From assembly GCA_009991965.1 (NCBI GenBank), contig JAACWQ010000002.1, positions 81,617-145,616 of the forward strand: a stretch of DNA of 64,000 bases. Reading direction: 5' to 3'. The notes below the pieces were generated by a model. It was not told the origin of the DNA. It did not search any database and saw nothing but the letters and a program-made list of their open reading frames with translations. Position 1 is the first letter of the stretch; each line of letters starts with the position of its first letter. This document shows, piece by piece, positions 18,678 to 37,151 of this stretch. Origin of the DNA: Minisyncoccota bacterium (GTDB taxonomy: Bacteria > Patescibacteriota > Microgenomatia > UBA1400 > PJMF01). The translations under genes were made by a program, and so were the position numbers.

Positions 18678-19631
18678 ATGGCTATAGTATCTACAGATCC
18701 CAGTGTTGCACTCACCTTGTTTCTTGAGCACCTTGAAGTGGAGCGAAACGTCAGTCGCTTAACCATCCGCAACTACAGACACTATTTGCAGCGCTTTTGT
18801 GACTGGTTTAACCAGGCAGGACATGAAGATCTGCGCAAATTAGATCTCGAGGTAGTACGGCAGTACAGAGTATACCTCTCGAGGTACAGTGATGAACAGG
18901 GTAGAACCCTCTCAAAACGTACACAAAGCTATTATACTATTGCTTTACGCAGCTGGCTCAAGTTTTTGATAAAACGAGACGCTCCAGTCTTGCACCCAGA
19001 GAAAATCGATCTGCCTCGCGGTGAGTCTCTTCCAATGAAGTTTCTCTCAATTGATAAGGTAGAAAATTTATTGTCACAGCCGTCTATTTCTACTATATCG
19101 GGCTTGCGTGATAAGGCAATATTGGAGGTCCTCTTCTCTACCGGACTCCGGGTAAGTGAGCTCGTAAACCTCAATCGAGAGCAAATCAATCTAGAAAGCC
19201 AAGAATTTGGAGTTATTGGCAAAGGACGTCGTCCTCGAGTAGTCTTCTTGAGTGATAGAGCTGTCTCTTGGTTGGATCGCTGGCTTCGTCAGAGGCAAGA
19301 TCATTGGCGTCCTGTTTTTATTCGTTTTTCTGGAAAAATAGCGACCCCGGATGAGGACGGAGAAAACATGCGTTTAACAACTCGAAGCATACAAAGAATT
19401 GTTGATATCTATGCCAAGAAGGCGCATCTGCCACTTAAGATAAGTCCACACGGCCTCAGGCACAGTTTTGCAACTGACCTTTTGGCCAACGGCGCTGGCC
19501 TTCGAGACGTTCAAGAAATGCTTGGACATAAAAGTATTGCCACGACGCAAATTTACACGCATGTGACTCGTCCACAGCTAAAAAAGATTCACCAGCGATT
19601 TCACTCGAAGGAACCTCAAGGCCAAAATTAG
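18678..19631 (+). CDS. tyrosine site-specific recombinase (XerC/XerD family)
   Basis: C-terminal catalytic region LRHSFATDLLANGAGLRDVQEMLGHKSIATTQIYTHV contains the R-H-R-Y motifs. N-terminal SAM-like core-binding domain. Confidence 0.85.
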   Translation: MAIVSTDPSVALTLFLEHLEVERNVSRLTIRNYRHYLQRFCDWFNQAGHEDLRKLDLEVVRQYRVYLSRYSDEQGRTLSKRTQSYYTIALRSWLKFLIKRDAPVLHPEKIDLPRGESLPMKFLSIDKVENLLSQPSISTISGLRDKAILEVLFSTGLRVSELVNLNREQINLESQEFGVIGKGRRPRVVFLSDRAVSWLDRWLRQRQDHWRPVFIRFSGKIATPDEDGENMRLTTRSIQRIVDIYAKKAHLPLKISPHGLRHSFATDLLANGAGLRDVQEMLGHKSIATTQIYTHVTRPQLKKIHQRFHSKEPQGQN

Positions 19632-20517: not shown

Positions 20518-21129
20518 CTACTGATTATTTTTTTGATGATCTCGGACCAATTTTCTGAAAAACTCCGATTTACTCTGATGTTCCGCCTTAGCTACCTGCG
20601 TGATGTACCTATTGAGTTCTGCCGAAATCAGGCAGTTGAACCGAATGGCATTTGGCAACTCGAGTGCATCTCTAATGGAAAGTCGCAGCACTTGTTCCAG
20701 GTCAATATTGCTGTATTCGCAATGCATTGGTCCCACTACGCCGGTCTCTTCCAAGAGAAACGGCGAGGTATTTTCTTGATAGAGGATGATAGTTGGCCTG
20801 TCTTGGTCAAGTGAGTGTTTGATAAAATGCGCCAACGTAAGACTTGGGTGAGTTGTTTCAAAAACACAAATGTCTGATGCGGCAATAGCCGCCAAACTAG
20901 TTTTATAAAAAGAATCTTTTTCTGCGCTGTTCCAGTCTGCAATAATTGCATTTTTGGTTTTTTCTAGATAACGCTCTGTAAGTTCAACTGGAAGCTTATG
21001 GAGAACTTGGTAGATGCGCGCAAATGCAGCGGGAAACATCGAACGTGTTTTGGGGCTGGTAGAAAAGAATATTTTTTTGTTCTCACCCATGGTGATTGAA
21101 TCTATAGTCTCTTGTGCGCTATCATACAA
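20518..21129 (-). CDS. paralogous DNPH1-like domain + C-terminal RHH protein (predicted catalytic Glu of the GYELG motif absent)
   Basis: IFFSTS N-terminus. SDICVFETTHPSLTLAHFIKHSLDQDRPTIILYQ core. C-terminal IRFNCLISAELNRYITQVAKAEHQSKSEFFRKLVRDH is RHH-like. Convergent with the previous gene, with stop codons 3 nt apart. Confidence 0.5.
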   Translation of the reverse strand: MYDSAQETIDSITMGENKKIFFSTSPKTRSMFPAAFARIYQVLHKLPVELTERYLEKTKNAIIADWNSAEKDSFYKTSLAAIAASDICVFETTHPSLTLAHFIKHSLDQDRPTIILYQENTSPFLLEETGVVGPMHCEYSNIDLEQVLRLSIRDALELPNAIRFNCLISAELNRYITQVAKAEHQSKSEFFRKLVRDHQKNNQ

Positions 21130-21132
21130 CAG

Positions 21133-21855
21133 ATGAGAAAAAATGAGTCCGGCTTTGTTGTCATTGTTACGATGCTTATTATGGTTGGCTTGATTAGTCT
21201 GGGTCTCTCAGTGGCCAACCAAAGTACTGAGGATACAGCCGAGTCTGGCGATGAATCTCAGGCAGTTCGTGTGTTTAATGCCGCCGAGGCTGGTGTTGAA
21301 GAATTGTTGTCTGCTCCTTTAGTAGATTCAGGTGCTATTTTGGATCGAGCAGATCAGTTCGATGGTTCAGACATTCGCTACAGAGTAATGGAGCAATATA
21401 CTCTCGAAACTCACTTGCTCGAGGGTGGCACCGCTACGATTGATTTGCCAGGTGGATATGCTGGAAATATTATTATAAATTGGGATAGTGCTGCCGCACT
21501 GTTGATTGCAATTTATACTGATGATGCCAGCGTACAAACAGTTCAATACGTAGGTGCTAATCCGTATACAGCTGTACGCATTGCTGGGTTCGATTCAGCA
21601 GCCAACGTTTCGAGTAAGAGTCGGTATCAATTCACTGCTCCAGCAAATACCAAAATGGTTCGTATTAAGTCATTGCTTGCTGCCACCAATCTCATCGTTG
21701 AATCAAGTTTCCCTGATCCGCAATATCACACTGTCCGCTCTGAGGCTACCGGCGCAGACGGTGTGACCAGAACTATCGAGGTAAATAAAACCATAGAAGT
21801 ACCTCCTGCAATCCTCGACTACGCCGTGTATAGTGGAGGAAGTATTACTAAATAA
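21133..21855 (+). CDS. PilX-like minor pilin / pilus assembly protein
   Basis: Hydrophobic N-terminal helix GFVVIVTMLIMVGLISLGLSV followed by FNAAEAGVEELL (PilX_N-like AEAGL motif). Sits upstream of pilMNO. Confidence 0.45.
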   Translation: MRKNESGFVVIVTMLIMVGLISLGLSVANQSTEDTAESGDESQAVRVFNAAEAGVEELLSAPLVDSGAILDRADQFDGSDIRYRVMEQYTLETHLLEGGTATIDLPGGYAGNIIINWDSAAALLIAIYTDDASVQTVQYVGANPYTAVRIAGFDSAANVSSKSRYQFTAPANTKMVRIKSLLAATNLIVESSFPDPQYHTVRSEATGADGVTRTIEVNKTIEVPPAILDYAVYSGGSITK

Positions 21856-21863
21856 GAATTACT

Positions 21864-22874
21864 ATGTCTGCTGCCCTAGCCATAGATATCGGTACATATA
21901 GCATCAAAGCCATCGCTGGTGAGCCTGGTGATGTTGTGCAAATTAAGCGCGTTGCCGAGGTTTTCAATACTACAGGCATGGCAGTGCCAACTGATGACGC
22001 TTCAGCATCAAAATTAGCCCAGATTATCGAAGCATTATTTACAGATTATAGTTTTCCCCGAGATAATGTACATCTCTCTTTACCAGAGACAGTTGTTTCT
22101 TCCAAGGTCATTAGTATTCCTCGTCTAAACGATTCGGAGTTAGCGTCTGCAATTGGCTGGCAAGCAGAACAGCATATTCCGATCCCACCAGACGAACTCT
22201 CTCTCGAGTACCAGGTGCTCTATCGACCAAAAAAGAATGAGCAAGCGCTGATGCGTGTCTTAATTGTTGGTGTACGCAAGCAAATTGTCGCCCAGTACCT
22301 CTCTGTTTTTGGCCAAATTGGGATTGAACCAGTCCATGTCGAGACACAAATGCTTTCGGTGTTGCGCTCGTTGCACTTTGTGCCAGAAGATCCCACCACG
22401 CTAGTGGTGCACTTTGGTGCTTCTAGTATGAATTTGCTGATGATGCATCAGGGTGAGCTACAGTTTGTATTGTCACAACTCAACGGTGGTCAATTATTGA
22501 CCAAAACTCTTGAACAACGGGTTGGACTAGATTCCGTGCAGGCCGAACAATACAAGCGTACCTATGGATTACGAACAGATCAATTTGAAGGTAAAGTCGG
22601 ACAGGCGTTACTCCCTGCTTTGCAAGTGCTGTTTGCAGAGGTAAAGAAAGCCATTCAGTTTTTTGTCAGTCAGCATCCACAAGCTGCGGTTGAGCGCGTG
22701 GTTCTCTCTGGTGGTTCATCATTATTGCCCGATCTGGTGCAGTACGTTGCCACTGAACTTGGGACAGAGGTACTTATAGCTGCCCCTTTTGCAAATGCCT
22801 CTGGAGAAATTCCCGAAAAAATCAATCAACCAGGGATGATTGTCTGCATGGGCTTGCTCTCGCAGACAAAGTAG
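21864..22874 (+). CDS. pilM: type IV pilus assembly protein PilM
   Basis: Actin-like ATPase N-terminus LAIDIGTYSIKAI. Around 336 aa. Confidence 0.8.
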   Translation: MSAALAIDIGTYSIKAIAGEPGDVVQIKRVAEVFNTTGMAVPTDDASASKLAQIIEALFTDYSFPRDNVHLSLPETVVSSKVISIPRLNDSELASAIGWQAEQHIPIPPDELSLEYQVLYRPKKNEQALMRVLIVGVRKQIVAQYLSVFGQIGIEPVHVETQMLSVLRSLHFVPEDPTTLVVHFGASSMNLLMMHQGELQFVLSQLNGGQLLTKTLEQRVGLDSVQAEQYKRTYGLRTDQFEGKVGQALLPALQVLFAEVKKAIQFFVSQHPQAAVERVVLSGGSSLLPDLVQYVATELGTEVLIAAPFANASGEIPEKINQPGMIVCMGLLSQTK

Positions 22875-22878
22875 CATC

Positions 22879-23445
22879 ATGCCAAGGAATATCAACTTTG
22901 TTCGTGACCGCCAACAAAAAGTAGCTCAGACTGAGCTTACTGATCAAAAAACTCTCATAGTTACGGTTAGTATATTTGCCGCTCTACTTGTTATCTCACT
23001 GGGTGCTACAGGTGTGGGTTGGTGGTTTGGAAATCAAGTGAAAACAGTTATTGCACAACAAAAATCTCAAGAATCTGCGATTGTGCAACAACAACCTATC
23101 GAGGAATCGTATACTATTTTTGCACACAAACTGCGAGTGCTCCGTGATTTATTTGGTAACCGCAAGAACAAACAGACGAGTATCAAATTTTTCAGCGAGT
23201 ACTTTGGTTCTGAGGTGATCGTGAGTCAACTGTCGTATGACAGCGAGGAAGAAGTTTTGACCTTTGTCTTGGACTCTAAAGATATTTTTGTGCTCAACAG
23301 TGTTTTTGAAAAATTGCAAAGTACTGAGCTGCGCACACTCTACCCTACTCTGCAGTATGGTGGTTTAAATCGTAGTGAGTCTGGGCGTTATGGATTGAAA
23401 CTCACAGTGACACTGCCGAAGTATGTCCTACAGAAAGCATCATGA
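22879..23445 (+). CDS. pilN: type IV pilus assembly protein PilN-like
   Basis: Single N-terminal TM followed by a coiled coil. Position is immediately after pilM. Confidence 0.55.
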   Translation: MPRNINFVRDRQQKVAQTELTDQKTLIVTVSIFAALLVISLGATGVGWWFGNQVKTVIAQQKSQESAIVQQQPIEESYTIFAHKLRVLRDLFGNRKNKQTSIKFFSEYFGSEVIVSQLSYDSEEEVLTFVLDSKDIFVLNSVFEKLQSTELRTLYPTLQYGGLNRSESGRYGLKLTVTLPKYVLQKAS

Positions 23446-24230
23446 AAGAAAAGAAGCCAAGTTTTAACCTCCACCTTTTCCTCCATATGCGCCAAAAACT
23501 CGTGATTGCAATTGGAGTTGGTTTTGCTGCAGCCCTAGTTGTATTTTTCCTTGGTGTGCCACAATTCCAAAAGATTTTCGAAACACAAGCCAAGCTCCAA
23601 AAGGAGACCACGCGTCTCAACAAGCTAAAGCAGAAATTAAGTGAGCTTGACAGTATCACGTATGAACCAGCATTTGGACAAGTTGCATTTATTTCAGAAA
23701 CGCTTCCATCCAAAAAACCACTCCTAGAATTGCTTACTAGTCTCTACGCGGTCACTCAAAAATCAGGTGTAGTAGTCGATGATTTTTCGATTAGTCCAGG
23801 TTTAGTGGCGACCACTGCAGCTGAGCTGAGCCAAGCGTCAAAGACGCAAACTGCTGGATATGACACCCTCGAGTTGAAGTTGTCTGTAACAGGTTCGTTT
23901 GAACAATTGCAAGACTTTATTTTATTGACCGAAACAGTGACTCCATTTACGACCATCACTTCGTTTGGCCTCAATGCCTCATTTGGTGAGACCACTGTAG
24001 ATGAAAAAGACAAGTTTACTGCTACGCTCGTTACCAATACGTTCTTTTTTACGAAGCCAATCTCTGTCTCGCTCGAGCAGGCACTGCCAAAACTTGCCGA
24101 GGAAGACTACATTGTATTATCTGAACTTTCTGGTTATGAACGTATTGAGTTGCCAGAACAATCCACCATTCTTGGCGGTGGTTCAATAGATTTCTTTCAA
24201 GTAGAGGGATTTACATTCCCAAGCAATTAA
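23442..24230 (+). CDS. type IV pilus assembly protein PilO-like
   Basis: N-terminal TM plus coiled coil (QAKLQKETTRLNKLKQKLSEL). 4-nt overlap with pilN. Confidence 0.45.
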   Translation: MKEKKPSFNLHLFLHMRQKLVIAIGVGFAAALVVFFLGVPQFQKIFETQAKLQKETTRLNKLKQKLSELDSITYEPAFGQVAFISETLPSKKPLLELLTSLYAVTQKSGVVVDDFSISPGLVATTAAELSQASKTQTAGYDTLELKLSVTGSFEQLQDFILLTETVTPFTTITSFGLNASFGETTVDEKDKFTATLVTNTFFFTKPISVSLEQALPKLAEEDYIVLSELSGYERIELPEQSTILGGGSIDFFQVEGFTFPSN

Positions 24231-28607: not shown

Positions 28608-29873
28608 TTAGTCATGGTTGATCCTGAAATAATTCCGTTTGCCAATACGAATGGCAGATATGTTTGTTGTATCGAGCATTTGCTGTGGATCAGTGATTTT
28701 CTGTTCATCTGGAGCGTAGATTGCAGTGCCACCCTGAGTGATTAGTCGGCGTAGATTGTTTTTACTCTCATTTGGGAGACATTCGCTTGCTAAGGATAAA
28801 ACAGATAACTTGCAACTCGAAACAGTAATAGTAGGGTCAACTTCAGAAGCAGACTTTTGTTGAACAGTTGTGTGAAAATAGTCGGCAGCCATGTTTGCTA
28901 AAGCTTGAGTGTGGTACTGCGTCACAATTGTTTTTGCTAGCTGTTGTTTGAATCCCATGGGGTTTTCTCCTGCCTGCATGGCGCGTTCCATTTCCGAGAT
29001 TTCTTCGGCTGCTACATCAGTCAACAAGGTAAAGTACTGGATGATTTGCTCGTCGGCGATCCGCATAAGTTTGCCGTACATTTCTGTCGGTTCTTCGGTC
29101 AGCGCGACAAAATTGCCGTACGATTTGCTCATCTTGCGTCCATCGGTCCCGTTGATAATTGGTGTCGTCAGCACCCATTTTTCTCGATTGTTATAGGATT
29201 TTTGCAACGTGCGACCCATCAGCATGTTGAATAATTGGTCTGATCCGCCGAGTTCCAGATCGACATCCATGACGACACTGTCGTAGCCTTGCAGTAATGG
29301 GTAAATGATTTCGTGACCAAAAATTGGCAACTCGTTTTTTATCCGTTCTTGGAACATATCGCGTTCTACCATCTGCTGTATTGTGGTTTTTGCCAGTAAT
29401 TTGACAATATCTTGGTAGGTCAATTTATCGAGCCAGTCGCCGTTGTAACGGATTGAGATTTTGTCAAAATCTAGAATTTTGCTCGCCTGTTGTTTCCAGT
29501 TTTTGAAGTTTTCTTGGATGACTTCGTCAGTCAGTTCTGGTCTGGTGCTGTCGCGGCCAGTTGGGTCGCCGATACGAACCGTGCCGTTGCCGATCAAAAG
29601 AATAACTTCGTGGCCTGCAGCTGCAAATTGTTGCAACTTGCGCAGCACAACTGAGTGACCGAGTGTGAGTAAATTACCGCTCGGATCGATACCAAGGTAG
29701 ACGCGGATCTTTTTTTGCTCCATGAGCGCGAAAAGTCCGGTTGCATCGGGGACGATTTGCTCGACACCTCTAGTCAGTAGTTCGGGGAGTTTTGTAGTCA
29801 CGAAAGTATTGTACCGCACTAATAATGGATTTTTATTCCTGTCTGAAGAGGGAGTCACCAAACCGTTTTGCAT
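28608..29873 (-). CDS. tyrS: tyrosyl-tRNA synthetase
   Basis: Class I HIGH (LGHSV variant) and KMSKS motifs. C-terminal S4-like domain. Confidence 0.9.
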   Translation of the reverse strand: MQNGLVTPSSDRNKNPLLVRYNTFVTTKLPELLTRGVEQIVPDATGLFALMEQKKIRVYLGIDPSGNLLTLGHSVVLRKLQQFAAAGHEVILLIGNGTVRIGDPTGRDSTRPELTDEVIQENFKNWKQQASKILDFDKISIRYNGDWLDKLTYQDIVKLLAKTTIQQMVERDMFQERIKNELPIFGHEIIYPLLQGYDSVVMDVDLELGGSDQLFNMLMGRTLQKSYNNREKWVLTTPIINGTDGRKMSKSYGNFVALTEEPTEMYGKLMRIADEQIIQYFTLLTDVAAEEISEMERAMQAGENPMGFKQQLAKTIVTQYHTQALANMAADYFHTTVQQKSASEVDPTITVSSCKLSVLSLASECLPNESKNNLRRLITQGGTAIYAPDEQKITDPQQMLDTTNISAIRIGKRNYFRINHD

Positions 29874-30660
29874 GGGTCAGTAGAAAGATGCTGCTGATGA
29901 GTGAAAGTACGCCCGTGCCGATCAAAAATACAGTTTGGCCAACAGAACCAGTTGCTGGCAGAGTGCTCGCTCCTTGAGCAGCAGCAATGCTTTCTCCAGT
30001 GCAACTACAATTGGTTGTCGTATTGCAGCTTGGGTTGCGGCATTTGCCAGACACACAACTCAGACCTGTGGCACATGAGACTGTCGCAGAACAATCTTGG
30101 TTGCATTGTGCAGTCGTTGTTGAGCTTGAACCACTGGTGGTAGTAAAGGTATAGCTGCCAGGTATGTTGGCACTGCATTGTGTGGTGGTGGCTAGTAGGT
30201 TAGCACCAACCAAAGTGATCAAATTGGAGTCATCAGAGCTTGTTTCGGAGCAACGAAGCGCGACCGCGACCGTGCCAGTCGCACCAGTGACAGGTTTCAC
30301 AGTTAGTGTGGCTAGTGTGCCCGTGCCCGTTACTCCGACGGTGTCTCCGATTGTCAATGTACCGGAAATAACGATTTCGCCGGTTTTGGTTGTATCGGTT
30401 GTGACTGTCGGGAAGTACGTACCGTTGACACTGGTGACGGTGACTTTTGCCGCATCGTAAGTGACGACTGCGCTGGCCGATTTCAGCTGATTTGAGTCTG
30501 CGTCAATAGTAACTGCGACACTGGTACCGGCCGTCTGCAGTGTTCCTGATGCGGGCGAGAGTGCAAAATGGGCAGCGGCCTGCGCAGCAGTGACGCTGTA
30601 GTGTCCCGCAAGGAGAAATATGCCGATAAGCAGAAGTGTTCGCTTGAGCAGTGTTGGCAT
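29833..30660 (-). CDS. LPXTG-anchored surface protein with cohesin-like domain and Cys/Thr-rich stalk
   Basis: Signal peptide. VVTYDAAKVTVTSV and GTGTLATLTVKPVTGATGTVAV are cohesin-like. C-terminal LPATGS, then a hydrophobic segment and a basic tail (HAKRFGD). Confidence 0.55.
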   Translation of the reverse strand: MPTLLKRTLLLIGIFLLAGHYSVTAAQAAAHFALSPASGTLQTAGTSVAVTIDADSNQLKSASAVVTYDAAKVTVTSVNGTYFPTVTTDTTKTGEIVISGTLTIGDTVGVTGTGTLATLTVKPVTGATGTVAVALRCSETSSDDSNLITLVGANLLATTTQCSANIPGSYTFTTTSGSSSTTTAQCNQDCSATVSCATGLSCVSGKCRNPSCNTTTNCSCTGESIAAAQGASTLPATGSVGQTVFLIGTGVLSLISSIFLLTHAKRFGDSLFRQE

Positions 30661-30663
30661 TGG

Positions 30664-31281
30664 CTATTTAGTTAGTATTGTTAGATTTTTGGTACTTTTG
30701 AGTATGTCGTCTCCTTGATTGCCCGCCACAACTGTCCCGTCAGCTGCAAAACTAAACGTGATCTCCCCTGGTTGCTTTGGCGTATAGGTGATTGTTGCCA
30801 GTGTTACTTCTGTACCAATTGTCACTGTTTCGTCTGGGAGACGCACTACTGCGAGGTTGATGACGCCTGTTTCTGCAGAAACAGTGTTGCGAACAACAGA
30901 GCTGAAGATCTGGCTTGGCTTGAGCGAAACATTAGTCACAAGATTTGGGTCAAAGTGAATGATAAGCTCTACTCCGTCGACGAGTTGCTCTATAGTTTCC
31001 GAACTGATCATGATATTGGCTGTGTTCTTTTCTTTTGCTTCGACCACAGCGAGCTCTACGCTTGGAGTGCTCTGCTCTTTGTTGATCATGGGCAGTTTAT
31101 CGCTCTCATCCATTTGTCTCGCAGGTTGTCGCAAAGTAGATACTGTGTCGCTATTTTTGTAGAGTAAGAAGCTTGTGGCGGCTAAAATAGCGGCGGCGAG
31201 CACGCCAATCACAAATCTATTGACAGCGTGTTCTGGTATTGGGTTGGGCATAGGACTTTTTGATTGAGTATTACTGATCAT
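30664..31281 (-). CDS. membrane-anchored secreted protein with cohesin-like domain
   Basis: N-terminal signal anchor. IIHFDPNLVTNVS and VTLATITYTPKQPGEITFSF are cohesin-like. Confidence 0.45.
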   Translation of the reverse strand: MISNTQSKSPMPNPIPEHAVNRFVIGVLAAAILAATSFLLYKNSDTVSTLRQPARQMDESDKLPMINKEQSTPSVELAVVEAKEKNTANIMISSETIEQLVDGVELIIHFDPNLVTNVSLKPSQIFSSVVRNTVSAETGVINLAVVRLPDETVTIGTEVTLATITYTPKQPGEITFSFAADGTVVAGNQGDDILKSTKNLTILTK

Positions 31282-32479
31282 ACGCGGTACTGAGTGTCTC
31301 GAGCAAGAGATCCATGTCTAGATTGGTTACAGTGCCATCTGCATTGCAGTCTGCACGAGCTACACAGGCGGCATCAGTTCGTTTACTCAGACAGCCAACC
31401 ATAAAAGAATAATCTGTTACGCGTACGACGCCATCTTGCTGATCTTTATTTGTACCCGAGATAGGCAGATCGCCGCAGGCAAGCGGCTTGTTTACAAAGT
31501 TAAACGTGTGCTCCACATCTTTGGTAATATCAATGCCATCGGTGATCTGACAGCGATAGTCTGCGATTTGCTCATTCTTGCAGAAACGAATTTGTTGGTG
31601 TTTTGGACCCTTGAGCAAAATATTGTATTTACCCGTGGCGAGCGTTGTGCTCGCAAGTGGATTGCTCAGGGAAAAGTATTGTGACAATCCATCAGTTTGT
31701 CCTACCACAAACCTGCTTATAACAGCAGCTGGGACCGTAATCTCGCCTGTGGCCATATTTTGCAGTGTTATTTTTACCGTTTGTGCTCGAGCAGCTTCTG
31801 GTAAGAAGTTAGGATTATGTTCTACCGGCAACCCAGCAAATTTGAACGCCAGTTGAATGGTTGTTTTAAGCGTTTCCGAAGCTTCTTCGGCGATGGTTAA
31901 ATTAATTGGTGTTGTCGGACTCTGATACACATTGTTTGTCAAGCCAGTTGCGGCGATTTTGGCAGATTGAGCGTCGATGCCAACAGCACTGTTGCCGACT
32001 GCGTTTTTGGTACGGAAAGTGAAGCTAACGAGATGTTGTGTGCCAGTTGCAGTAGAATCTGGCTGTTTGCCAATCGCTAGGCGAATTCTGCCGTTGGTAG
32101 TGTCTACTTCTTTTTTGAGCAAAACGCCAAAATTCGCGGTAAATAGATCGGTCGAAACATATTCAAGTGAAAGCGGGTCATAGGTAAGCACAAAATCCGT
32201 TGCTGTTGGTTGCGCATTGGTTGGCAGTATTTCTACAAGCACGCTCATGGTTCTGTTTGGCGTAATTGTGATGGTTGCCGAAGGTTGATTTTGTGTATTG
32301 TTTTCGACTGCAGAGAGTCTCAGCTGCACTGCTTCACCGGTTGCACCTTGTCGCAAATCTTGATTGTTCATGGTAAGCATGACGGTTGAAAAGAGACCTA
32401 CTATGGCAGTAAGTATCAGTGCTATCCCCAGCGCTCGCTTGGTTTTCATTTCCTGGGTAGTGATAAATTGTTTCATCAT
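31271..32479 (-). CDS. secreted protein with N-terminal cohesin-like domain and C-terminal dockerin-like module
   Basis: Signal anchor. FVLTYDPLSLEYVS and HLVSFTFRTKNAVGNSAV are cohesin-like. The C-terminal DCNADGTVTNLDMDLLLETL matches the dockerin Ca-binding repeat D-x-N-x-D-G-x-V...D...L. Confidence 0.5.
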   Translation of the reverse strand: MMKQFITTQEMKTKRALGIALILTAIVGLFSTVMLTMNNQDLRQGATGEAVQLRLSAVENNTQNQPSATITITPNRTMSVLVEILPTNAQPTATDFVLTYDPLSLEYVSTDLFTANFGVLLKKEVDTTNGRIRLAIGKQPDSTATGTQHLVSFTFRTKNAVGNSAVGIDAQSAKIAATGLTNNVYQSPTTPINLTIAEEASETLKTTIQLAFKFAGLPVEHNPNFLPEAARAQTVKITLQNMATGEITVPAAVISRFVVGQTDGLSQYFSLSNPLASTTLATGKYNILLKGPKHQQIRFCKNEQIADYRCQITDGIDITKDVEHTFNFVNKPLACGDLPISGTNKDQQDGVVRVTDYSFMVGCLSKRTDAACVARADCNADGTVTNLDMDLLLETLSTAYDQ

Positions 32480-32487
32480 GCTGTTAG

Positions 32488-34350
32488 TTACCTATTTGTG
32501 TCAAACACCTCTATGAAACTTATAATATCTTGTGAATCAATTGTACATGTTCCAGCTAAATTATAGTCACAAAAATCTGTACCAAATTTGCCGAATAGTA
32601 GATTGTAATCAAAAATGTCTACTTTGCCGCTGCGGTCAAAATCTCCAGATATTTGTTGGGTACTAGCACAATTAGTCTCAGATTCCCCAACCGCTGTGCA
32701 AGCAATTATTGGTTGTCCCAAACCTTGGCTGTTTGCTCGCTGCCAAGTTACATCGAGTAAATCTGGTCTACTCCCCGCTTGCTGCACATAACTCCAACAA
32801 AAACCTTCGTTGCAGATTGTGCTGGTATTGTTAACATCATTTGTCCACCCGACGGTCGGTCCATTATTTGCAGTGATGCTGACACCAGTGTCGCCAGGAG
32901 CAATTTTAAAGAGGTCGGTGATATCAAATGGTCTGCCTTTTCCGGCATCATCTTGGTTGTGCCAGCGCATTTCATTGTAATTAAACACCCAGCACCACTT
33001 GGTATTGCAAAAATATTCACGACTATTTACCTTGTCTGTCCAGGCAGCAGAAATACCTGCGCCAGAGAAAAGTGTGGTGCCATCACTTGCGGCGACTGTG
33101 TCTTTCCAATATTGTTGTGTGCTCAAATCAATTCCTTGGCCATTATTTGCCCAGCCACCAGTACCCCAGAGCCACATAAATTTGTTGTTGGTCAGAGACA
33201 CCAAATTGTTTTTGTAATCTTCCCAGCCGGCTTTTGGTCCGCCATTTTTCCAGAGTGATTGCGATTCGGTAGTTTGAACATTACTGCCAAATGCAGCTCT
33301 TAAATCAATAGGATTGCCGCTATTTTCTATGAGGCCCGTTGCAAAATTGCTTCTCCAACACCAGGCGCCATTACAGATTGTTGCAATGTGTGAAGTGGGA
33401 TCGGTCCATGCTGTAGTCGGTCCAAGTCTGTTCTGTTGGGCATTTTTTGTCCACGGGAGTGTGTCGTCGCTGGCTGCTACAAATTTGACCGTTGTACTGG
33501 GTGGAGTTGGCTCTGGCGGAGTCGTTTCTTCTGGAAATATATTTGCCAAAATTTTTGTTGCAAGATTGTCCGAAATGAAATTAATTGACCCTTCCTTAGT
33601 TAGTTCCCACTTACCCTGTTCTCTTGATTTATTTTGCACGATGGTTTCTCTGTCAACGGCGTCGAATGCAGCCACCATGCCGTTTTGTTCGTTATTTGCT
33701 ATGCCTTCTGCATTGACCAGTCCGTAGTCAAAATACACGCCAATCAGGTCGGGCGCGTCGGCTGCCTCTACCCCATATGTTGGGGACGCAGGAGTGACGC
33801 TGCTCAGCAAAGTTCCGTTTGGTGCGTAGAACTCAATTTTGCTGATGCCAAAATCTCGATCAGTTACGGGAGTTGTATTTGGATTCCAGTAGTCATTGAA
33901 AAAGACATAGGATAGCTTGGTTATAAAACGGTCGCTCGTGTTTTGATCAGGTTGCATAAGTAGCTTGCCCACGGAAACTTGTGTTTCCAATACCTGTGTT
34001 GTTGCTGTTGGACAAAAGTAATTGCCGCAATCGCCTGGTTGCATTTTGTCGTTGTACAAGTTGGGAGTACCACAACCAGTTCCAGCGGAAGCACAGCTGC
34101 CATAGTCATAGGGACCGTCAAAATTTGTTCCATTGTTTATATACAAGGCAAATTTTGGCCAATTAGAACTATCTCTAGTATCGAGTCCGGCTTTTGCAGT
34201 GACATGTGTTTTGATAGTAATGGGAACATCTGCGATTGCGGTAATTGCGTTTAAGTCAATTGCCTCAACCGAGAGTGAGGTGTTGCTGAGTTGGTTTGCG
34301 AGTCCAAAAAGACTCAGGGCACACAAAAAGATAAAAGCTACCCTAGACAT
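32488..34350 (-). CDS. large secreted protein with Cys-Trp repeat modules and C-terminal dockerin-like module
   Basis: Signal peptide. Three repeats of the type TICN.G.CW (ICNEGFCWSY, ICNGAWCWRS, FCNTKWCWVF). C-terminal DFDRSGKVDIFDYNLLFGKF is dockerin-like. Confidence 0.45.
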   Translation of the reverse strand: MSRVAFIFLCALSLFGLANQLSNTSLSVEAIDLNAITAIADVPITIKTHVTAKAGLDTRDSSNWPKFALYINNGTNFDGPYDYGSCASAGTGCGTPNLYNDKMQPGDCGNYFCPTATTQVLETQVSVGKLLMQPDQNTSDRFITKLSYVFFNDYWNPNTTPVTDRDFGISKIEFYAPNGTLLSSVTPASPTYGVEAADAPDLIGVYFDYGLVNAEGIANNEQNGMVAAFDAVDRETIVQNKSREQGKWELTKEGSINFISDNLATKILANIFPEETTPPEPTPPSTTVKFVAASDDTLPWTKNAQQNRLGPTTAWTDPTSHIATICNGAWCWRSNFATGLIENSGNPIDLRAAFGSNVQTTESQSLWKNGGPKAGWEDYKNNLVSLTNNKFMWLWGTGGWANNGQGIDLSTQQYWKDTVAASDGTTLFSGAGISAAWTDKVNSREYFCNTKWCWVFNYNEMRWHNQDDAGKGRPFDITDLFKIAPGDTGVSITANNGPTVGWTNDVNNTSTICNEGFCWSYVQQAGSRPDLLDVTWQRANSQGLGQPIIACTAVGESETNCASTQQISGDFDRSGKVDIFDYNLLFGKFGTDFCDYNLAGTCTIDSQDIISFIEVFDTNR

Positions 34351-34397
34351 ATACGTTACTACTATAAGGCATAATTGTAAGTTGTTACAATAGCAGC

Positions 34398-37151
34398 GTG
34401 AATCTCTCTTCTCGCCTCCAGTACCACTCGCTAGTTTTTCGAGGTCGCTTGCGGTACTATTGGTACCGCATGAGACGACTCACTTCTCGAAGAAATAGAT
34501 TACAAACTCCGTCCCGTAGAATTGTTACGACACCAGGTCTCGGTCGCGGAAAATTACTGTGGTTCAAACTGTTACGTTTTGTTGCACTGGCCGGAATGAT
34601 CAGCATTGTGTTGGGGATAATCTTATTTTTTGTGCTGTTTGCTTGGTTCTCGCGCAGTTTACCCAAGCCTGGTGAAGTAATCCGTCATTCTGGTTTTAGC
34701 ACCAAGATTTTTGATCGCAACGGGGTTTTGTTGTACGACTTGTTTGATCAGGAGCGACGGACGCCGGTGATTATCTCAGAGCTTCCCGATGACCTCCTAC
34801 ACGCAACTATTGCAACCGAAGATAAAGATTTTTACAAACATGGTGGTTTTGACATGCTCACGGTCTTGCGAATTCCGTACAACGTCATCGCTCGCCAACG
34901 GGTGATTGGGGGCTCGACCCTCACTCAGCAGTTGGTCAAAAATGCGCTGTTAACAAATGAACGCACTATTACTCGCAAGTTCAAAGAATTTGTCTTGTCG
35001 CTGCAGCTTGAGCGCACATTTACCAAAGATCAAATTCTCGAGATGTACCTCAATGAAGCCCCGTACGGCGGAACTGCTTGGGGTGTAGGAACTGCAGCCG
35101 AGGTGTACTTTAATAAACCAGCAAAAGATCTCACTTTAGTAGAGTCAGCGATTTTGGCAGGCTTGCCACAGCGACCATCGGCCTACTCTCCCTATACGGG
35201 TAAGTCCGATGAAGATGGCACACCGCTGTGGAAAGTTCGTGCCAAGGGCGTGTTGCGGCGCATGCAGGAAGATGACTATATTACTGACCTTGCCTACGAA
35301 TCTGCTCTCGCTGATCTAGATTCGATTGAGTTTTCTCGCAGCCAACTCTCGATCAAAGCACCCCACTTTGTCTTTTATATTCGCGACTTACTCGATGAGT
35401 TGTATGGCGAAGATGTTGTCGAAACTTCTGGTTTCAAAGTCACTACGAGTTTAGATTTGGAGATGCAAGACAAAGTGCAAGAAATAGTTTTTGAAGAAAT
35501 TGACAAAGTTACTAACCTCAATATTACAAATGGTTCGGCCATGGTGATGGATCCAAGAACGGGCGAAATTTTGAGCATGGTCGGGAGTAAAGATTTTGAG
35601 AGCGAAGAAATCGATGGGCAATACAATGTTGCGGTAGACGGTTTGCGCCAACCGGGTTCTTCGATCAAGCCAGTCACCTATCTATCTTTGCTGCAACAGG
35701 GATACACACCATCTTCTATTTTGATCGATACACCGACTGTTTTTACGCCAAACGAATCAGCCGATGCCTATGAGCCAAAGAATTATGACGGCAAATTTCA
35801 TGGTCCAGTCTCTGTTCGCACGAGTCTTGCCAGTTCGCTCAACGTCCCGGCGGTCAAGGCGCTCGCAACAGTTGGCATCGATGCTTTTTTACAGCAAGCC
35901 TACGACATGGGTTTTGTGACATTGGAGCCAACACAGGCCAATAAAAAGCGATTTGGGCTCGCGGTCACTCTGGGAGGTGCAGAAGTACACTTGATCGATA
36001 CCGTTACCGCATATAGCTCATTTGCAACTGGAGGAAAAAAGGTTGAACCAGTCGGAATTTTGAAAATCGAAGACCAGACTGGTCGCACCGTGTTTGAGCA
36101 CAAGCAGGTCGAAGGTCAGCGACTTTTTTCTGAGGCAGCTGCCTTTCTTATCAATCATATTCTCTCTGACAACATCGCTCGCTCGCTCGCGTTTGGTACG
36201 CGCTCACTGCTCAACGTCAGTCCAAATGTTGCAGTCAAAACAGGAACAACCAATGATCAGCGAGATAACTGGGCAATTGGTTGGTCGCAAGATGTAGTCG
36301 TTGGTGCTTGGGTTGGTAACAACGATAATTCTGCAATGAAAGTGGTGGCTTCTGGTGTGTCTGGTGCTACACCAATTTGGCGCAGAATTATGCTGTTGGC
36401 GCTCGATAGCGGGTACGGTGCGCCTGCGTGGGAAGTGCCGGAAGATATTGACCAAGTATTAGTAGACAGTGTTTCTGGCTATCCAGAGCACGACGGGTTC
36501 CCCAGCCGTAGTGATTTTGCGATCAAAGGAACACTGCCAAATTTGCCAGATTTAGTACACACTAAACTCAAGCTGTGTCGTGGCGAAAACAAGCTTGCTC
36601 CTGAGGCGCGCGTTGCTGGTGGAGATTACGAAGAGCGTGAAGCAATTGTTTTGCAAGAATCTGATCTAGTTTCACTCGACGGTATCAATCGTTGGCAAGC
36701 TGGTATTAACGAATGGATCGGTGGCCAAGAAGATTCACGCTACAAAATCCCCACGGAGTACTGCGGCAATCAGAAAGAGATCTTTCTCAATATGAGTCGG
36801 CCAGAAAATGAGAAGAAGTACGACAATGAAGACATTGAGATAAAAATAGAATCAGATTCTGGTGAAGGTATCGAAAAATTAGAACTCATTGTCAACGGTT
36901 CAGTTCGCGAGACAATCAATAATCGTAACTACACTGGGACGATTAAATTGACAAAGGGACGCTATGAGATTTGGGTAAAAGCCTACTCACGATCGGGAGA
37001 GACGAAAGAAAGTGGCCATGTCAGAATTGGTACCGGTGGTGAAGACTGGAAAGCGCCAGATCCTACACCAACGCCTACCCCAGTTCCAACCCCTACTCCT
37101 TCACTTACACCGAGTCCGGTTCCTTCTCTGATTCCTTCACCAACACCATAA
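34398..37151 (+). CDS. penicillin-binding protein 1A (bifunctional glycosyltransferase/transpeptidase) with C-terminal extension
   Basis: GT51 motifs EDKDFYKHGGFD and GGSTLTQQ. Transpeptidase SxxK region (PGSSIKP) and KTGT. C-terminal extra domain and Pro/Thr-rich tail PTPTPTPVPTPTPS. Confidence 0.85.
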   Translation: MNLSSRLQYHSLVFRGRLRYYWYRMRRLTSRRNRLQTPSRRIVTTPGLGRGKLLWFKLLRFVALAGMISIVLGIILFFVLFAWFSRSLPKPGEVIRHSGFSTKIFDRNGVLLYDLFDQERRTPVIISELPDDLLHATIATEDKDFYKHGGFDMLTVLRIPYNVIARQRVIGGSTLTQQLVKNALLTNERTITRKFKEFVLSLQLERTFTKDQILEMYLNEAPYGGTAWGVGTAAEVYFNKPAKDLTLVESAILAGLPQRPSAYSPYTGKSDEDGTPLWKVRAKGVLRRMQEDDYITDLAYESALADLDSIEFSRSQLSIKAPHFVFYIRDLLDELYGEDVVETSGFKVTTSLDLEMQDKVQEIVFEEIDKVTNLNITNGSAMVMDPRTGEILSMVGSKDFESEEIDGQYNVAVDGLRQPGSSIKPVTYLSLLQQGYTPSSILIDTPTVFTPNESADAYEPKNYDGKFHGPVSVRTSLASSLNVPAVKALATVGIDAFLQQAYDMGFVTLEPTQANKKRFGLAVTLGGAEVHLIDTVTAYSSFATGGKKVEPVGILKIEDQTGRTVFEHKQVEGQRLFSEAAAFLINHILSDNIARSLAFGTRSLLNVSPNVAVKTGTTNDQRDNWAIGWSQDVVVGAWVGNNDNSAMKVVASGVSGATPIWRRIMLLALDSGYGAPAWEVPEDIDQVLVDSVSGYPEHDGFPSRSDFAIKGTLPNLPDLVHTKLKLCRGENKLAPEARVAGGDYEEREAIVLQESDLVSLDGINRWQAGINEWIGGQEDSRYKIPTEYCGNQKEIFLNMSRPENEKKYDNEDIEIKIESDSGEGIEKLELIVNGSVRETINNRNYTGTIKLTKGRYEIWVKAYSRSGETKESGHVRIGTGGEDWKAPDPTPTPTPVPTPTPSLTPSPVPSLIPSPTP

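Follow-up and report, generated by a model that had tools for sequence, protein, structure and literature searches.

A 64,000-nucleotide stretch of DNA from a Minisyncoccota bacterium (GenBank assembly GCA_009991965.1, contig JAACWQ010000002.1, positions 81,617 to 145,616 of the forward strand; hereafter the window) contains four genes, named here A to D, whose products were analyzed as a candidate surface assembly. The four proteins are judged, with a probability of about 75%, to form a cohesin–dockerin surface display system that is anchored by sortase. The cassette works like the anchor of a cellulosome and not like a cellulosome. An earlier note on this DNA had proposed a wall-anchored cohesin, an adaptor with both module types and a dockerin-bearing cargo; the domains were confirmed, and the gene order recurs in relatives with the cargo slot swapped. 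The four genes are consecutive on the minus strand at 29833-34350, all of their open reading frames (ORFs) are present, and the peptide motifs quoted in the note were all located where expected in the translations. The intergenic spacings A/B, B/C and C/D are 3, -11 and 8 nt, so that A to D are most simply read as one operon.

Cohesin-like domains had been assigned to three of the proteins. All three assignments held, those of B and C by hidden Markov model (HMM) and profile comparison and that of A by its predicted fold and its relatives. Protein A, for which 13 full-length orthologues of 54-80% identity were found, has a signal peptide with the sequence AQA, a cohesin, a Ser/Thr-rich stalk with an eight-cysteine module and a sortase sorting signal. 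The AlphaFold2 model of its cohesin (residues 30-137; predicted local distance difference test, pLDDT, about 80-87) has the elongated beta-sandwich (jelly-roll) fold of cohesins. Foldseek searches of the PDB with this model returned cohesins as 49 of the top 50 matches, the best being 6kgc_A (E=1.6e-7, TM-score 0.74 to the target). Two distant relatives of A, P0042 and P0043 (E about 1e-8 to A), scored 34.4 and 33.4 bits against Pfam Cohesin (PF00963), above its gathering cutoff of 24.1 bits. The A family profile found no cohesin in the PDB, merely weak and spurious matches to PsaK and Dumpy, and comparison of A with the B and C profiles in hhalign gave a probability of 2-3%, i.e. no link. Because these profile searches were negative, the cohesin identity of A rests on predicted structure and transitive homology.

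The sequence LPATGS in one cohesin protein had been read as a cell-wall sorting signal, and A does carry the LPATG pentapeptide followed by a transmembrane (TM) segment and a basic tail. Together with the N-terminal signal, these are the features of a sortase substrate. The score of A against Pfam Gram_pos_anchor (PF00746) was 15.1 bits, below the cutoff of 20, while orthologue P0037 passed with 24.7 bits; NCBI names one A orthologue that passes this profile an LPXTG anchor protein. Among orthologues the pentapeptide takes the forms LPKTA, LPESG, LPASG, LPETA and LPVSG, summarized as LPx[TS][GA]. In the stalk module all eight cysteines are invariant (alignment A2). This region is poorly modeled and shows weak similarity to the DPY module of Dumpy. 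The eight-cysteine module is missing from the shorter A-like proteins of other lineages, e.g. at 5868-6512 of L012, one of the homologous loci (L numbers) that were fetched for comparison.

Protein B consists of an N-terminal TM helix, a variable linker and a cohesin with nothing after it; it has no dockerin, sorting signal or cysteine. As a single sequence it matched Pfam Cohesin with E=4.7e-4 and 20.8 bits over profile positions 4-137 of 139, and six of eight family members matched (best E=1.5e-5). In hhalign, B was linked to the C cohesin profile with 96.3% probability (E=1.5e-9), while the B family profile had no match in the PDB. The claim that all four proteins are secreted stood in part. 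Proteins A and D have a signal peptide, whereas a single N-terminal TM helix is found in B and in C, with neither an obviously cleavable signal nor a canonical signal-peptidase site. Protein B, the constant companion of A, had been left unexplained in the earlier note. It might act as a further socket close to the membrane or serve for staging.

Protein C, with 12 full-length homologues, is composed of a TM helix with a QDLRQGA motif, a cohesin, a middle beta-rich module and a dockerin. Its cohesin as a single sequence scored E=7.1e-4 and 20.2 bits against Pfam Cohesin; 10 of the 12 family members matched (best E=5.7e-11), and the family profile matched the cohesin of Clostridium perfringens NagJ (2jh2/2o4e/2ozn) with E=2e-5. 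Single-sequence phmmer searches of the PDB with C and D found nothing. NCBIfam yielded nothing useful. The middle module is shared with the beta-helix protein P0013 and with other cargo proteins, and had no Pfam or PDB sequence match. It may be comparable to the X-dockerin dyad of Ruminococcus flavefaciens ScaB, in which a conserved accessory module precedes the anchor-binding dockerin.

The D-x-N-x-D-G tails had been interpreted as dockerins, and this was upheld for C by Pfam and for D by comparison of its family profile with solved dockerins. The C dockerin passed Pfam Dockerin_1 (PF00404) with 23.8 bits against a cutoff of 22.9, and all 12 family members matched. Its second calcium loop, DCNADGTVTNLD, is canonical, while the first has a conserved insertion, GDLPISGxNxDQQDGxVRVTD. 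The domain contains four invariant cysteines and is nearly invariant in sequence (alignment A1). The D family profile matched 2y3n_B (E=4.3e-5), 2b59_B (1.1e-4) and the NagH dockerin 2jnk/2ozn (1.9e-3) in the PDB, and 16 of its 19 matches were dockerins. D has a canonical first loop, DFDRSGKVDIFD; the second, NLAGTCTIDSQD, is degenerate, lacks acidic ligands at positions 1, 3 and 5, and is flanked by the conserved cysteine pair C594 and C602. In the relative P0024 a canonical duplicated dockerin aligns with the D tail, which is itself modeled with helices at residues 579-589 and 606-616 at low pLDDT.

Protein D, with its homologues in alignment A5, is built of a signal peptide, an N-terminal domain, a hemopexin-fold propeller and the dockerin. 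The model of residues 290-555 (pLDDT 85-93) has four repeated sheet units, and the top 22 Foldseek matches in the PDB were hemopexin-like domains (1rtg, E=2.1e-8, TM-score 0.71). The three CW repeats that had been noted in the cargo are present, not as free repeats, rather as parts of three of the four propeller blades: blades 1, 3 and 4 carry a C-x4-CW hairpin, and blade 2 has NNKFMWLW instead. Pfam Hemopexin (PF00045) did not match D at E<=1, the D family profile had no hemopexin match in the PDB, and relatives P0024 and P0014 reached E=0.009 and 0.021 with Pfam Hemopexin, below its cutoff. The modeled propeller is thus predicted to be of hemopexin fold and not a member of the Pfam Hemopexin family. 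Hemopexin-like propellers, among them the C-terminal domains of matrix metalloproteinases, hemopexin and the legume PA2 albumins, act as ligand- or protein-binding modules. The D propeller resembles them in predicted structure (TM-scores 0.64-0.71); it has no significant sequence similarity to them, and its blades 1, 3 and 4 each have their own C-x4-C hairpin. No description of a fusion of a hemopexin fold with a dockerin was found in the literature.

Conserved cysteines in local pairs number eight in the A stalk, six in C and 14 in mature D. This richness in cysteine fits the enrichment of extracytoplasmic disulfide-forming enzymes reported for the candidate phyla radiation (CPR) (PMC6744442). 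The coordinates of the genes and their domains are collected in Table 1.

Table 1. Genes A to D and the domains of their products, with positions in the window
Feature	Protein residues or length	Window coordinates	Strand	Basis or remark
Gene A	275 aa	29833-30660	minus	ORF; proposed wall-anchored base
A cohesin domain	30-140	30241-30573	minus	AlphaFold2 and Foldseek; Pfam matches of relatives
A 8-Cys stalk module, CNQDC..C..GLSCVSGKCRNPSC..NCSC	184-222	29995-30111	minus	alignment A2
A sorting signal	LPATG 234-238; TM segment 243-261; basic tail HAKRFGDSLFRQE	29836-29961	minus	
Gene B	205 aa	30664-31281	minus	ORF; proposed membrane-tethered cohesin
B N-terminal TM helix	23-41	31159-31215	minus	
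B cohesin	72-205	30667-31068	minus	Pfam Cohesin
Gene C	402 aa	31271-32479	minus	ORF; proposed adaptor
C cohesin	50-190	31910-32332	minus	Pfam Cohesin, family profile
C middle module	195-330	31490-31897	minus	always directly before C-type dockerins
C dockerin	331-402	31274-31489	minus	Pfam Dockerin_1
Gene D	620 aa	32488-34350	minus	ORF; proposed displayed cargo
D N-terminal domain	40-270	33541-34233	minus	
D four-bladed hemopexin-fold beta-propeller	295-548	32707-33468	minus	model and Foldseek
D dockerin	566-620	32491-32655	minus	family profile versus PDB

The order D-C-B-A is kept in L001, L003, L005, L007, L008 (cut inside A), L009 and L010, and in L014-L016. In L003, L007 and L009 the neighbors are different, with gyrA upstream and, in two of them, an integrase downstream. 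As the order is kept despite different neighbors, the four genes appear to travel as a unit. A scan for A-like genes, taking one genome per species, found them in 22 genomes, which include Pacebacteria, Woesebacteria, Beckwithbacteria, Roizmanbacteria and unclassified Microgenomates or Patescibacteria, and the loci were annotated with domain HMMs built from the cassettes. Three of these genomes have the full four-gene form. Most of the others have a core triad on the same strand, in this order: a variable protein that ends in the C middle module and a C-type dockerin, a B-like TM-cohesin of about 200 residues, and an A-like cohesin with an LPx[TSA][GA] motif. A B-like gene precedes the A-like gene in most of the 22 genomes.

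The variable protein of the triad is a thermolysin-like M4 peptidase in two genomes and in others carries CBM_4_9, DUF5648 or the adaptor cohesin; 7 of 10 such proteins pass Pfam Dockerin_1. In the distant lineage represented by L012 the same four-part layout is found, with a 174-residue Cys-rich dockerin protein in the place of D. In L013, which lacks D, the position of C is taken by a beta-helix protein with a C-type dockerin; B-like (E=3e-36) and A-like (E=2e-65) genes come next. When 1.84 billion representative proteins were searched exhaustively with the 73-residue C dockerin, 80 matches were obtained, most of them at the extreme C-terminus of proteins of 60-1258 residues. Twenty-six were scanned with Pfam, and 20 of these matched Dockerin_1; at least 26 otherwise different proteins end in the module. 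Their other domains include subtilases (S8), beta-helix/NosD, CBM_4_9, PD40, Hint and Big_2. Since the B and A base stands beside such varied C-type-dockerin proteins in the relatives, it looks like a general anchoring hub, and the pair of C and D like a lineage-specific extension of it. The cohesin–dockerin kit probably serves for general display of surface proteins in related ultra-small bacteria.

In the proposed mechanism A would be exported via Sec, and a housekeeping sortase encoded elsewhere would cleave LPATG and link A covalently to peptidoglycan, exposing its cohesin on the disulfide-rich stalk. The nearly invariant dockerin of C, with the preceding middle module, might plug into the conserved cohesin of A and perhaps into that of B, and the fast-evolving cohesin of C might capture the dockerin of D. 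The propeller and N-terminal domain of D would then be placed at the outer tip as a ligand- or host-binding head; that D mediates host attachment is speculation. This specific chain, A to C to D, is held more tentatively than the display system as such and is put somewhat short of an even chance.

The chain draws on patterns of conservation and co-occurrence. Mean identity across the cassettes was 73% for the A cohesin, 84% for the C dockerin, 34% for the C cohesin, 43% for the B cohesin and 51% for the D dockerin. The A cohesin and the C dockerin are the most conserved, as is expected if many cargo proteins must fit the same A socket, and the gene beside B and A is always one with a C-type dockerin. 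D and the C cohesin are jointly missing in L013. Four of five loci in which the gene beside B and A carries a cohesin have a gene of a different dockerin type directly upstream.

A different wiring of the same modules was considered, with two parallel anchors in which A holds the C-type dockerins, B holds D, and the partner of the C cohesin is a dockerin protein from another part of the genome. It would give a partner to B, which lies beside A in nearly every genome and so needs one. The B cohesin and D dockerin are similarly conserved, and the identity of the D dockerin tracks that of the B cohesin more closely than that of the C cohesin. Nevertheless, B is present with no D-type dockerin gene nearby in L013, L017, L020 and L021, L013 lacks both D and the C cohesin, and the correlations are drawn from eight related taxa that are not independent. 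Such mirror-tree-style correlations were rejected as evidence of pairing, as the pairs are non-independent and all domains correlate through phylogeny. Parallel anchors are regarded as unlikely.

Several points weigh against the display system or its details. Which cohesin pairs with which dockerin is something we infer. A had no match to Pfam Cohesin as a single sequence, A, B and C as single sequences all stay under the gathering cutoff of that profile, and D as a single sequence did not match Dockerin_1. The C and D dockerins each have one non-canonical calcium loop as well as conserved cysteines, and the D dockerin region and N-terminal domain are poorly modeled. The role of B is without known precedent. 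The correlation of the D dockerin with the C cohesin (rho 0.40) is lower than with the B cohesin (rho 0.70), both values being confounded by phylogeny. L019 and L033 have extra dockerin genes upstream though no adaptor cohesin was detected there. Finally, no sortase was found within the 64-kb window or in the 35 fetched loci.

Some of these points would also suit the view that the modules do not bind each other at all, the proteins being independent surface proteins with Ig-like sandwiches and calcium-binding helices that are co-located by a shared envelope function. Single-sequence HMM scores are marginal, and each dockerin has one degenerate loop. For a large number of cohesin and dockerin modules outside cellulosomes no partner is known to have been demonstrated, which also counts for this view. 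Against it, a dockerin gene and two cohesin genes stay strictly adjacent in lineages that diverged deeply, even as the cargo changes, and a near-invariant C dockerin together with a conserved A cohesin is the pattern of an interface under selection. Solved non-cellulosomal pairs also exist, such as 2ozn of C. perfringens, which is matched by the C and D family profiles. Independence of the modules is considered quite improbable.

The lack of a sortase gene in the window, already remarked on in the earlier note, was borne out by Pfam scans of about 55 ORFs of at least 150 residues. The sortase motif TLxTC, scanned for in the window and in all loci, matched only spuriously, on shadow ORFs. In Microgenomates sortase is reported to be nearly ubiquitous (PMC6744442), and one is encoded by a complete genome of the group (PMC7143001). 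The sorting signal of A also raises the idea that A is the base subunit of a sortase-polymerized pilus or fiber with B-D as accessory pilins, in a radiation that depends heavily on surface filaments (PMC6744442). No pilin-type motif (e.g. YPKN) was seen, no class C sortase was present in the window or the 35 loci, B, C and D have no sorting signals, and the folds are those of cohesin and hemopexin, not the CnaB/CnaA folds of pilins. On these grounds of motif, sortase, sorting signal and fold a pilus was rejected; its likelihood is put at next to nothing.

The cohesin–dockerin display system favored here has its best-described counterparts in ruminococci. The attachment of R. flavefaciens ScaE to the cell surface is sortase-mediated (PMC4611034), and ScaC of that species is a small adaptor with a cohesin and a dockerin that widens the set of recruitable proteins (PMC5429695). 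As in the design proposed for the cassette, a single-cohesin surface protein tethers the complex through a dockerin, an adaptor is present and the genes are clustered. Unlike R. flavefaciens, a Firmicute, the host here is a CPR bacterium, and its cassette has neither multi-cohesin scaffoldins nor glycoside hydrolases. A hemopexin-fold propeller serves as cargo, with peptidases in this place in relatives, a membrane-tethered cohesin (B) always accompanies the wall cohesin, and the dockerins have conserved Cys pairs and one non-canonical calcium loop of two.

A nearer likeness is found in the Ruminococcus bromii amylosome. Its Sca2 has a single cohesin and a sortase signal and binds the dockerins of amylases and peptidases, which its authors regarded as a general surface-anchoring mechanism (PMC4611034). 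Sca2 is the closest functional analog of A as a hub. Unlike the cassette, the main cargo of R. bromii is GH13 amylases, there is no paired TM-cohesin, and the conserved gene neighborhood is not part of that system as described. Set against the known systems, the cassette also stands out by the conserved module ahead of its putative anchoring dockerin. The NagJ cohesin and NagH dockerin of C. perfringens are non-cellulosomal, as here, and include the best sequence-level PDB match of the C cohesin profile. Unlike the cassette modules, they link secreted enzymes to one another and not to a wall-anchored base, and there is no operon of adaptor and anchor.

The layout shared with R. flavefaciens and R. 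bromii might suggest a true miniature cellulosome that degrades plant or other polysaccharides, and some related cargo proteins do carry CBM_4_9 or pectate-lyase-like beta-helices. Pfam scans of A-D and of the remaining ORFs of the window found no glycoside hydrolase or carbohydrate-binding module. In this cassette a hemopexin-fold propeller takes the cargo slot, and related cargo consists mostly of peptidases and binding modules. With a single cohesin per protein as well, a true cellulosome was rejected and is given only a very slight chance.

Literature on CPR, Patescibacteria, Microgenomates and Saccharibacteria yielded no description of this operon or of any cohesin–dockerin system, although some homologues are already annotated publicly as cohesin, dockerin or LPXTG proteins. 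The nearest mention found was a dockerin-domain envelope protein that is essential to a cultivated Saccharibacterium (PMC10633639), so that modules of this sort may be relevant to life as an epibiont. Cohesin and dockerin modules outside cellulosomes are generally known, and the cassette extends a known principle. Sortase-anchored cohesin display, characterized so far in Ruminococcus, would be extended to a distant lineage and to cargo unrelated to carbohydrate.

CPR/Patescibacteria account for much of bacterial diversity, and the majority are believed to live fixed to other cells. To our knowledge, how they retain surface proteins and recognize hosts is largely unknown. The operon proposes for Microgenomates, a large CPR group, a conserved pair of membrane and wall sockets into which peptidases, binding modules and adaptors plug through a shared dockerin, and the hemopexin-fold head and N-terminal domain of D are candidate host-interaction proteins. 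The finding stands, is conserved and can be tested, and it has a bearing on the construction of the surface in ultra-small bacteria. A bolder form of the idea is a two-tier relay that generally anchors secreted proteins across Microgenomates, in which newly secreted dockerin proteins with an N-terminal TM helix and QDxRQxA would first be caught by B and then handed to A, and the adaptor of Pacebacteria would present a host-recognizing hemopexin-fold head. This relay is thought distinctly unlikely; if true, a membrane-to-wall cohesin relay and a dockerin-displayed host-recognition module in an episymbiont would both lack precedent.

The QDxRQxA motif was seen in residues 17-46 of C (32342-32431), where in C and all of its orthologues the TM helix is followed by an invariant Q-D-x-R-(Q/N)-x-A. 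The sequence DxRQQA recurs after a TM helix in otherwise unrelated C-type-dockerin proteins (L013 8001-9905, P0026-P0028 and the consensus of alignment A6). QDxRQxA differs from the canonical AxA signal-peptidase site; it may be a signal for export or processing that is peculiar to the lineage and accompanies the dockerin.

Orthologues of D differ in their modules (L003 8527-9999, L007 8662-10035 and L009 5187-6602; P0016, P0020 and P0021). Some, of 457-490 residues, have a Cys-containing domain (ELVKKYILRID..C..) in place of the propeller, and in others this domain is inserted between propeller and dockerin. What stays constant is the N-terminal domain and the dockerin. In L029 (2940-9166), L033 (2267-9319) and L034 (3125-9122) the cassette is preceded by two or three genes with distinct dockerin tails, for example ...DFNxDGQVxIxDLDILGRNYGLQG and DANCDGxIN...DFNKDxKVNLxDFEIWR, which suggests several cohesin–dockerin specificities per cluster.

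Loci of the Roizmanbacteria type have, after the A-like gene, a conserved gene of about 220 codons whose product has the tail C..IK.KLG.GC.TQDY.KC and then a Pro/Thr-rich end. Copies were found in L023 (10611-11276), L025 (10700-11353), L028 (7861-8565), L030 (10561-11214), L032 (10543-11229), L033 (10624-11328) and L012 (6509-7108), the last with a Pfam match to Pur_ac_phosph_N (FN3-like). It is a possible fifth component, not present in the window, where tyrS follows A. Nine contigs of metagenome-assembled genomes with the Microgenomates-type triad are titled 'uncultured Gammaproteobacteria' or 'Pseudomonadales' (L018, L019, L022, L024, L025, L028, L029, L030 and L035). These labels look doubtful, since the contigs hold a sortase-anchored cohesin operon of the same layout as the CPR ones.

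Housekeeping genes flank the cassette: tyrS and recG lie at one end, PBP1A and Wzy_C-type genes at the other. An origin from a mobile element or phage was rejected, as this position between tyrS/recG and PBP1A is kept in several genomes. Two partial proteins of Candidatus Pacebacteria CG10_big_fil agree with parts of D (COU68_03290, 100% identity) and of A (COU68_02170, 99% identity), which places the window in a Pacebacteria (Microgenomates, CPR) genome. The tyrS ORF that adjoins A is listed at 28608-29873 (minus strand) and overlaps the 3' end of A by 41 nt, while the PBP1A-like ORF is listed at 34398-37151 (plus strand) with a GTG start 47 nt from the start codon of D. Both listed starts are probably over-extended. 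The orthologues in L001 have 920 (PBP1A-like) and 396 (tyrS) residues, compared with 917 and 421 here. Promoter-like hexamers lie directly upstream of D at 34361-34402; promoter- and terminator-like sites were not commoner in the region than in shuffled sequence.

Elsewhere the window encodes type IV pilus assembly proteins (PilX_N, PilM and PilO, 21112-24230), a XerC/D-type integrase (18678-19631) and a secreted protein with a CAP/SCP domain (57618-58178). A FemAB-family gene at 61567-62598 could build the peptidoglycan cross-bridge that sortases use.

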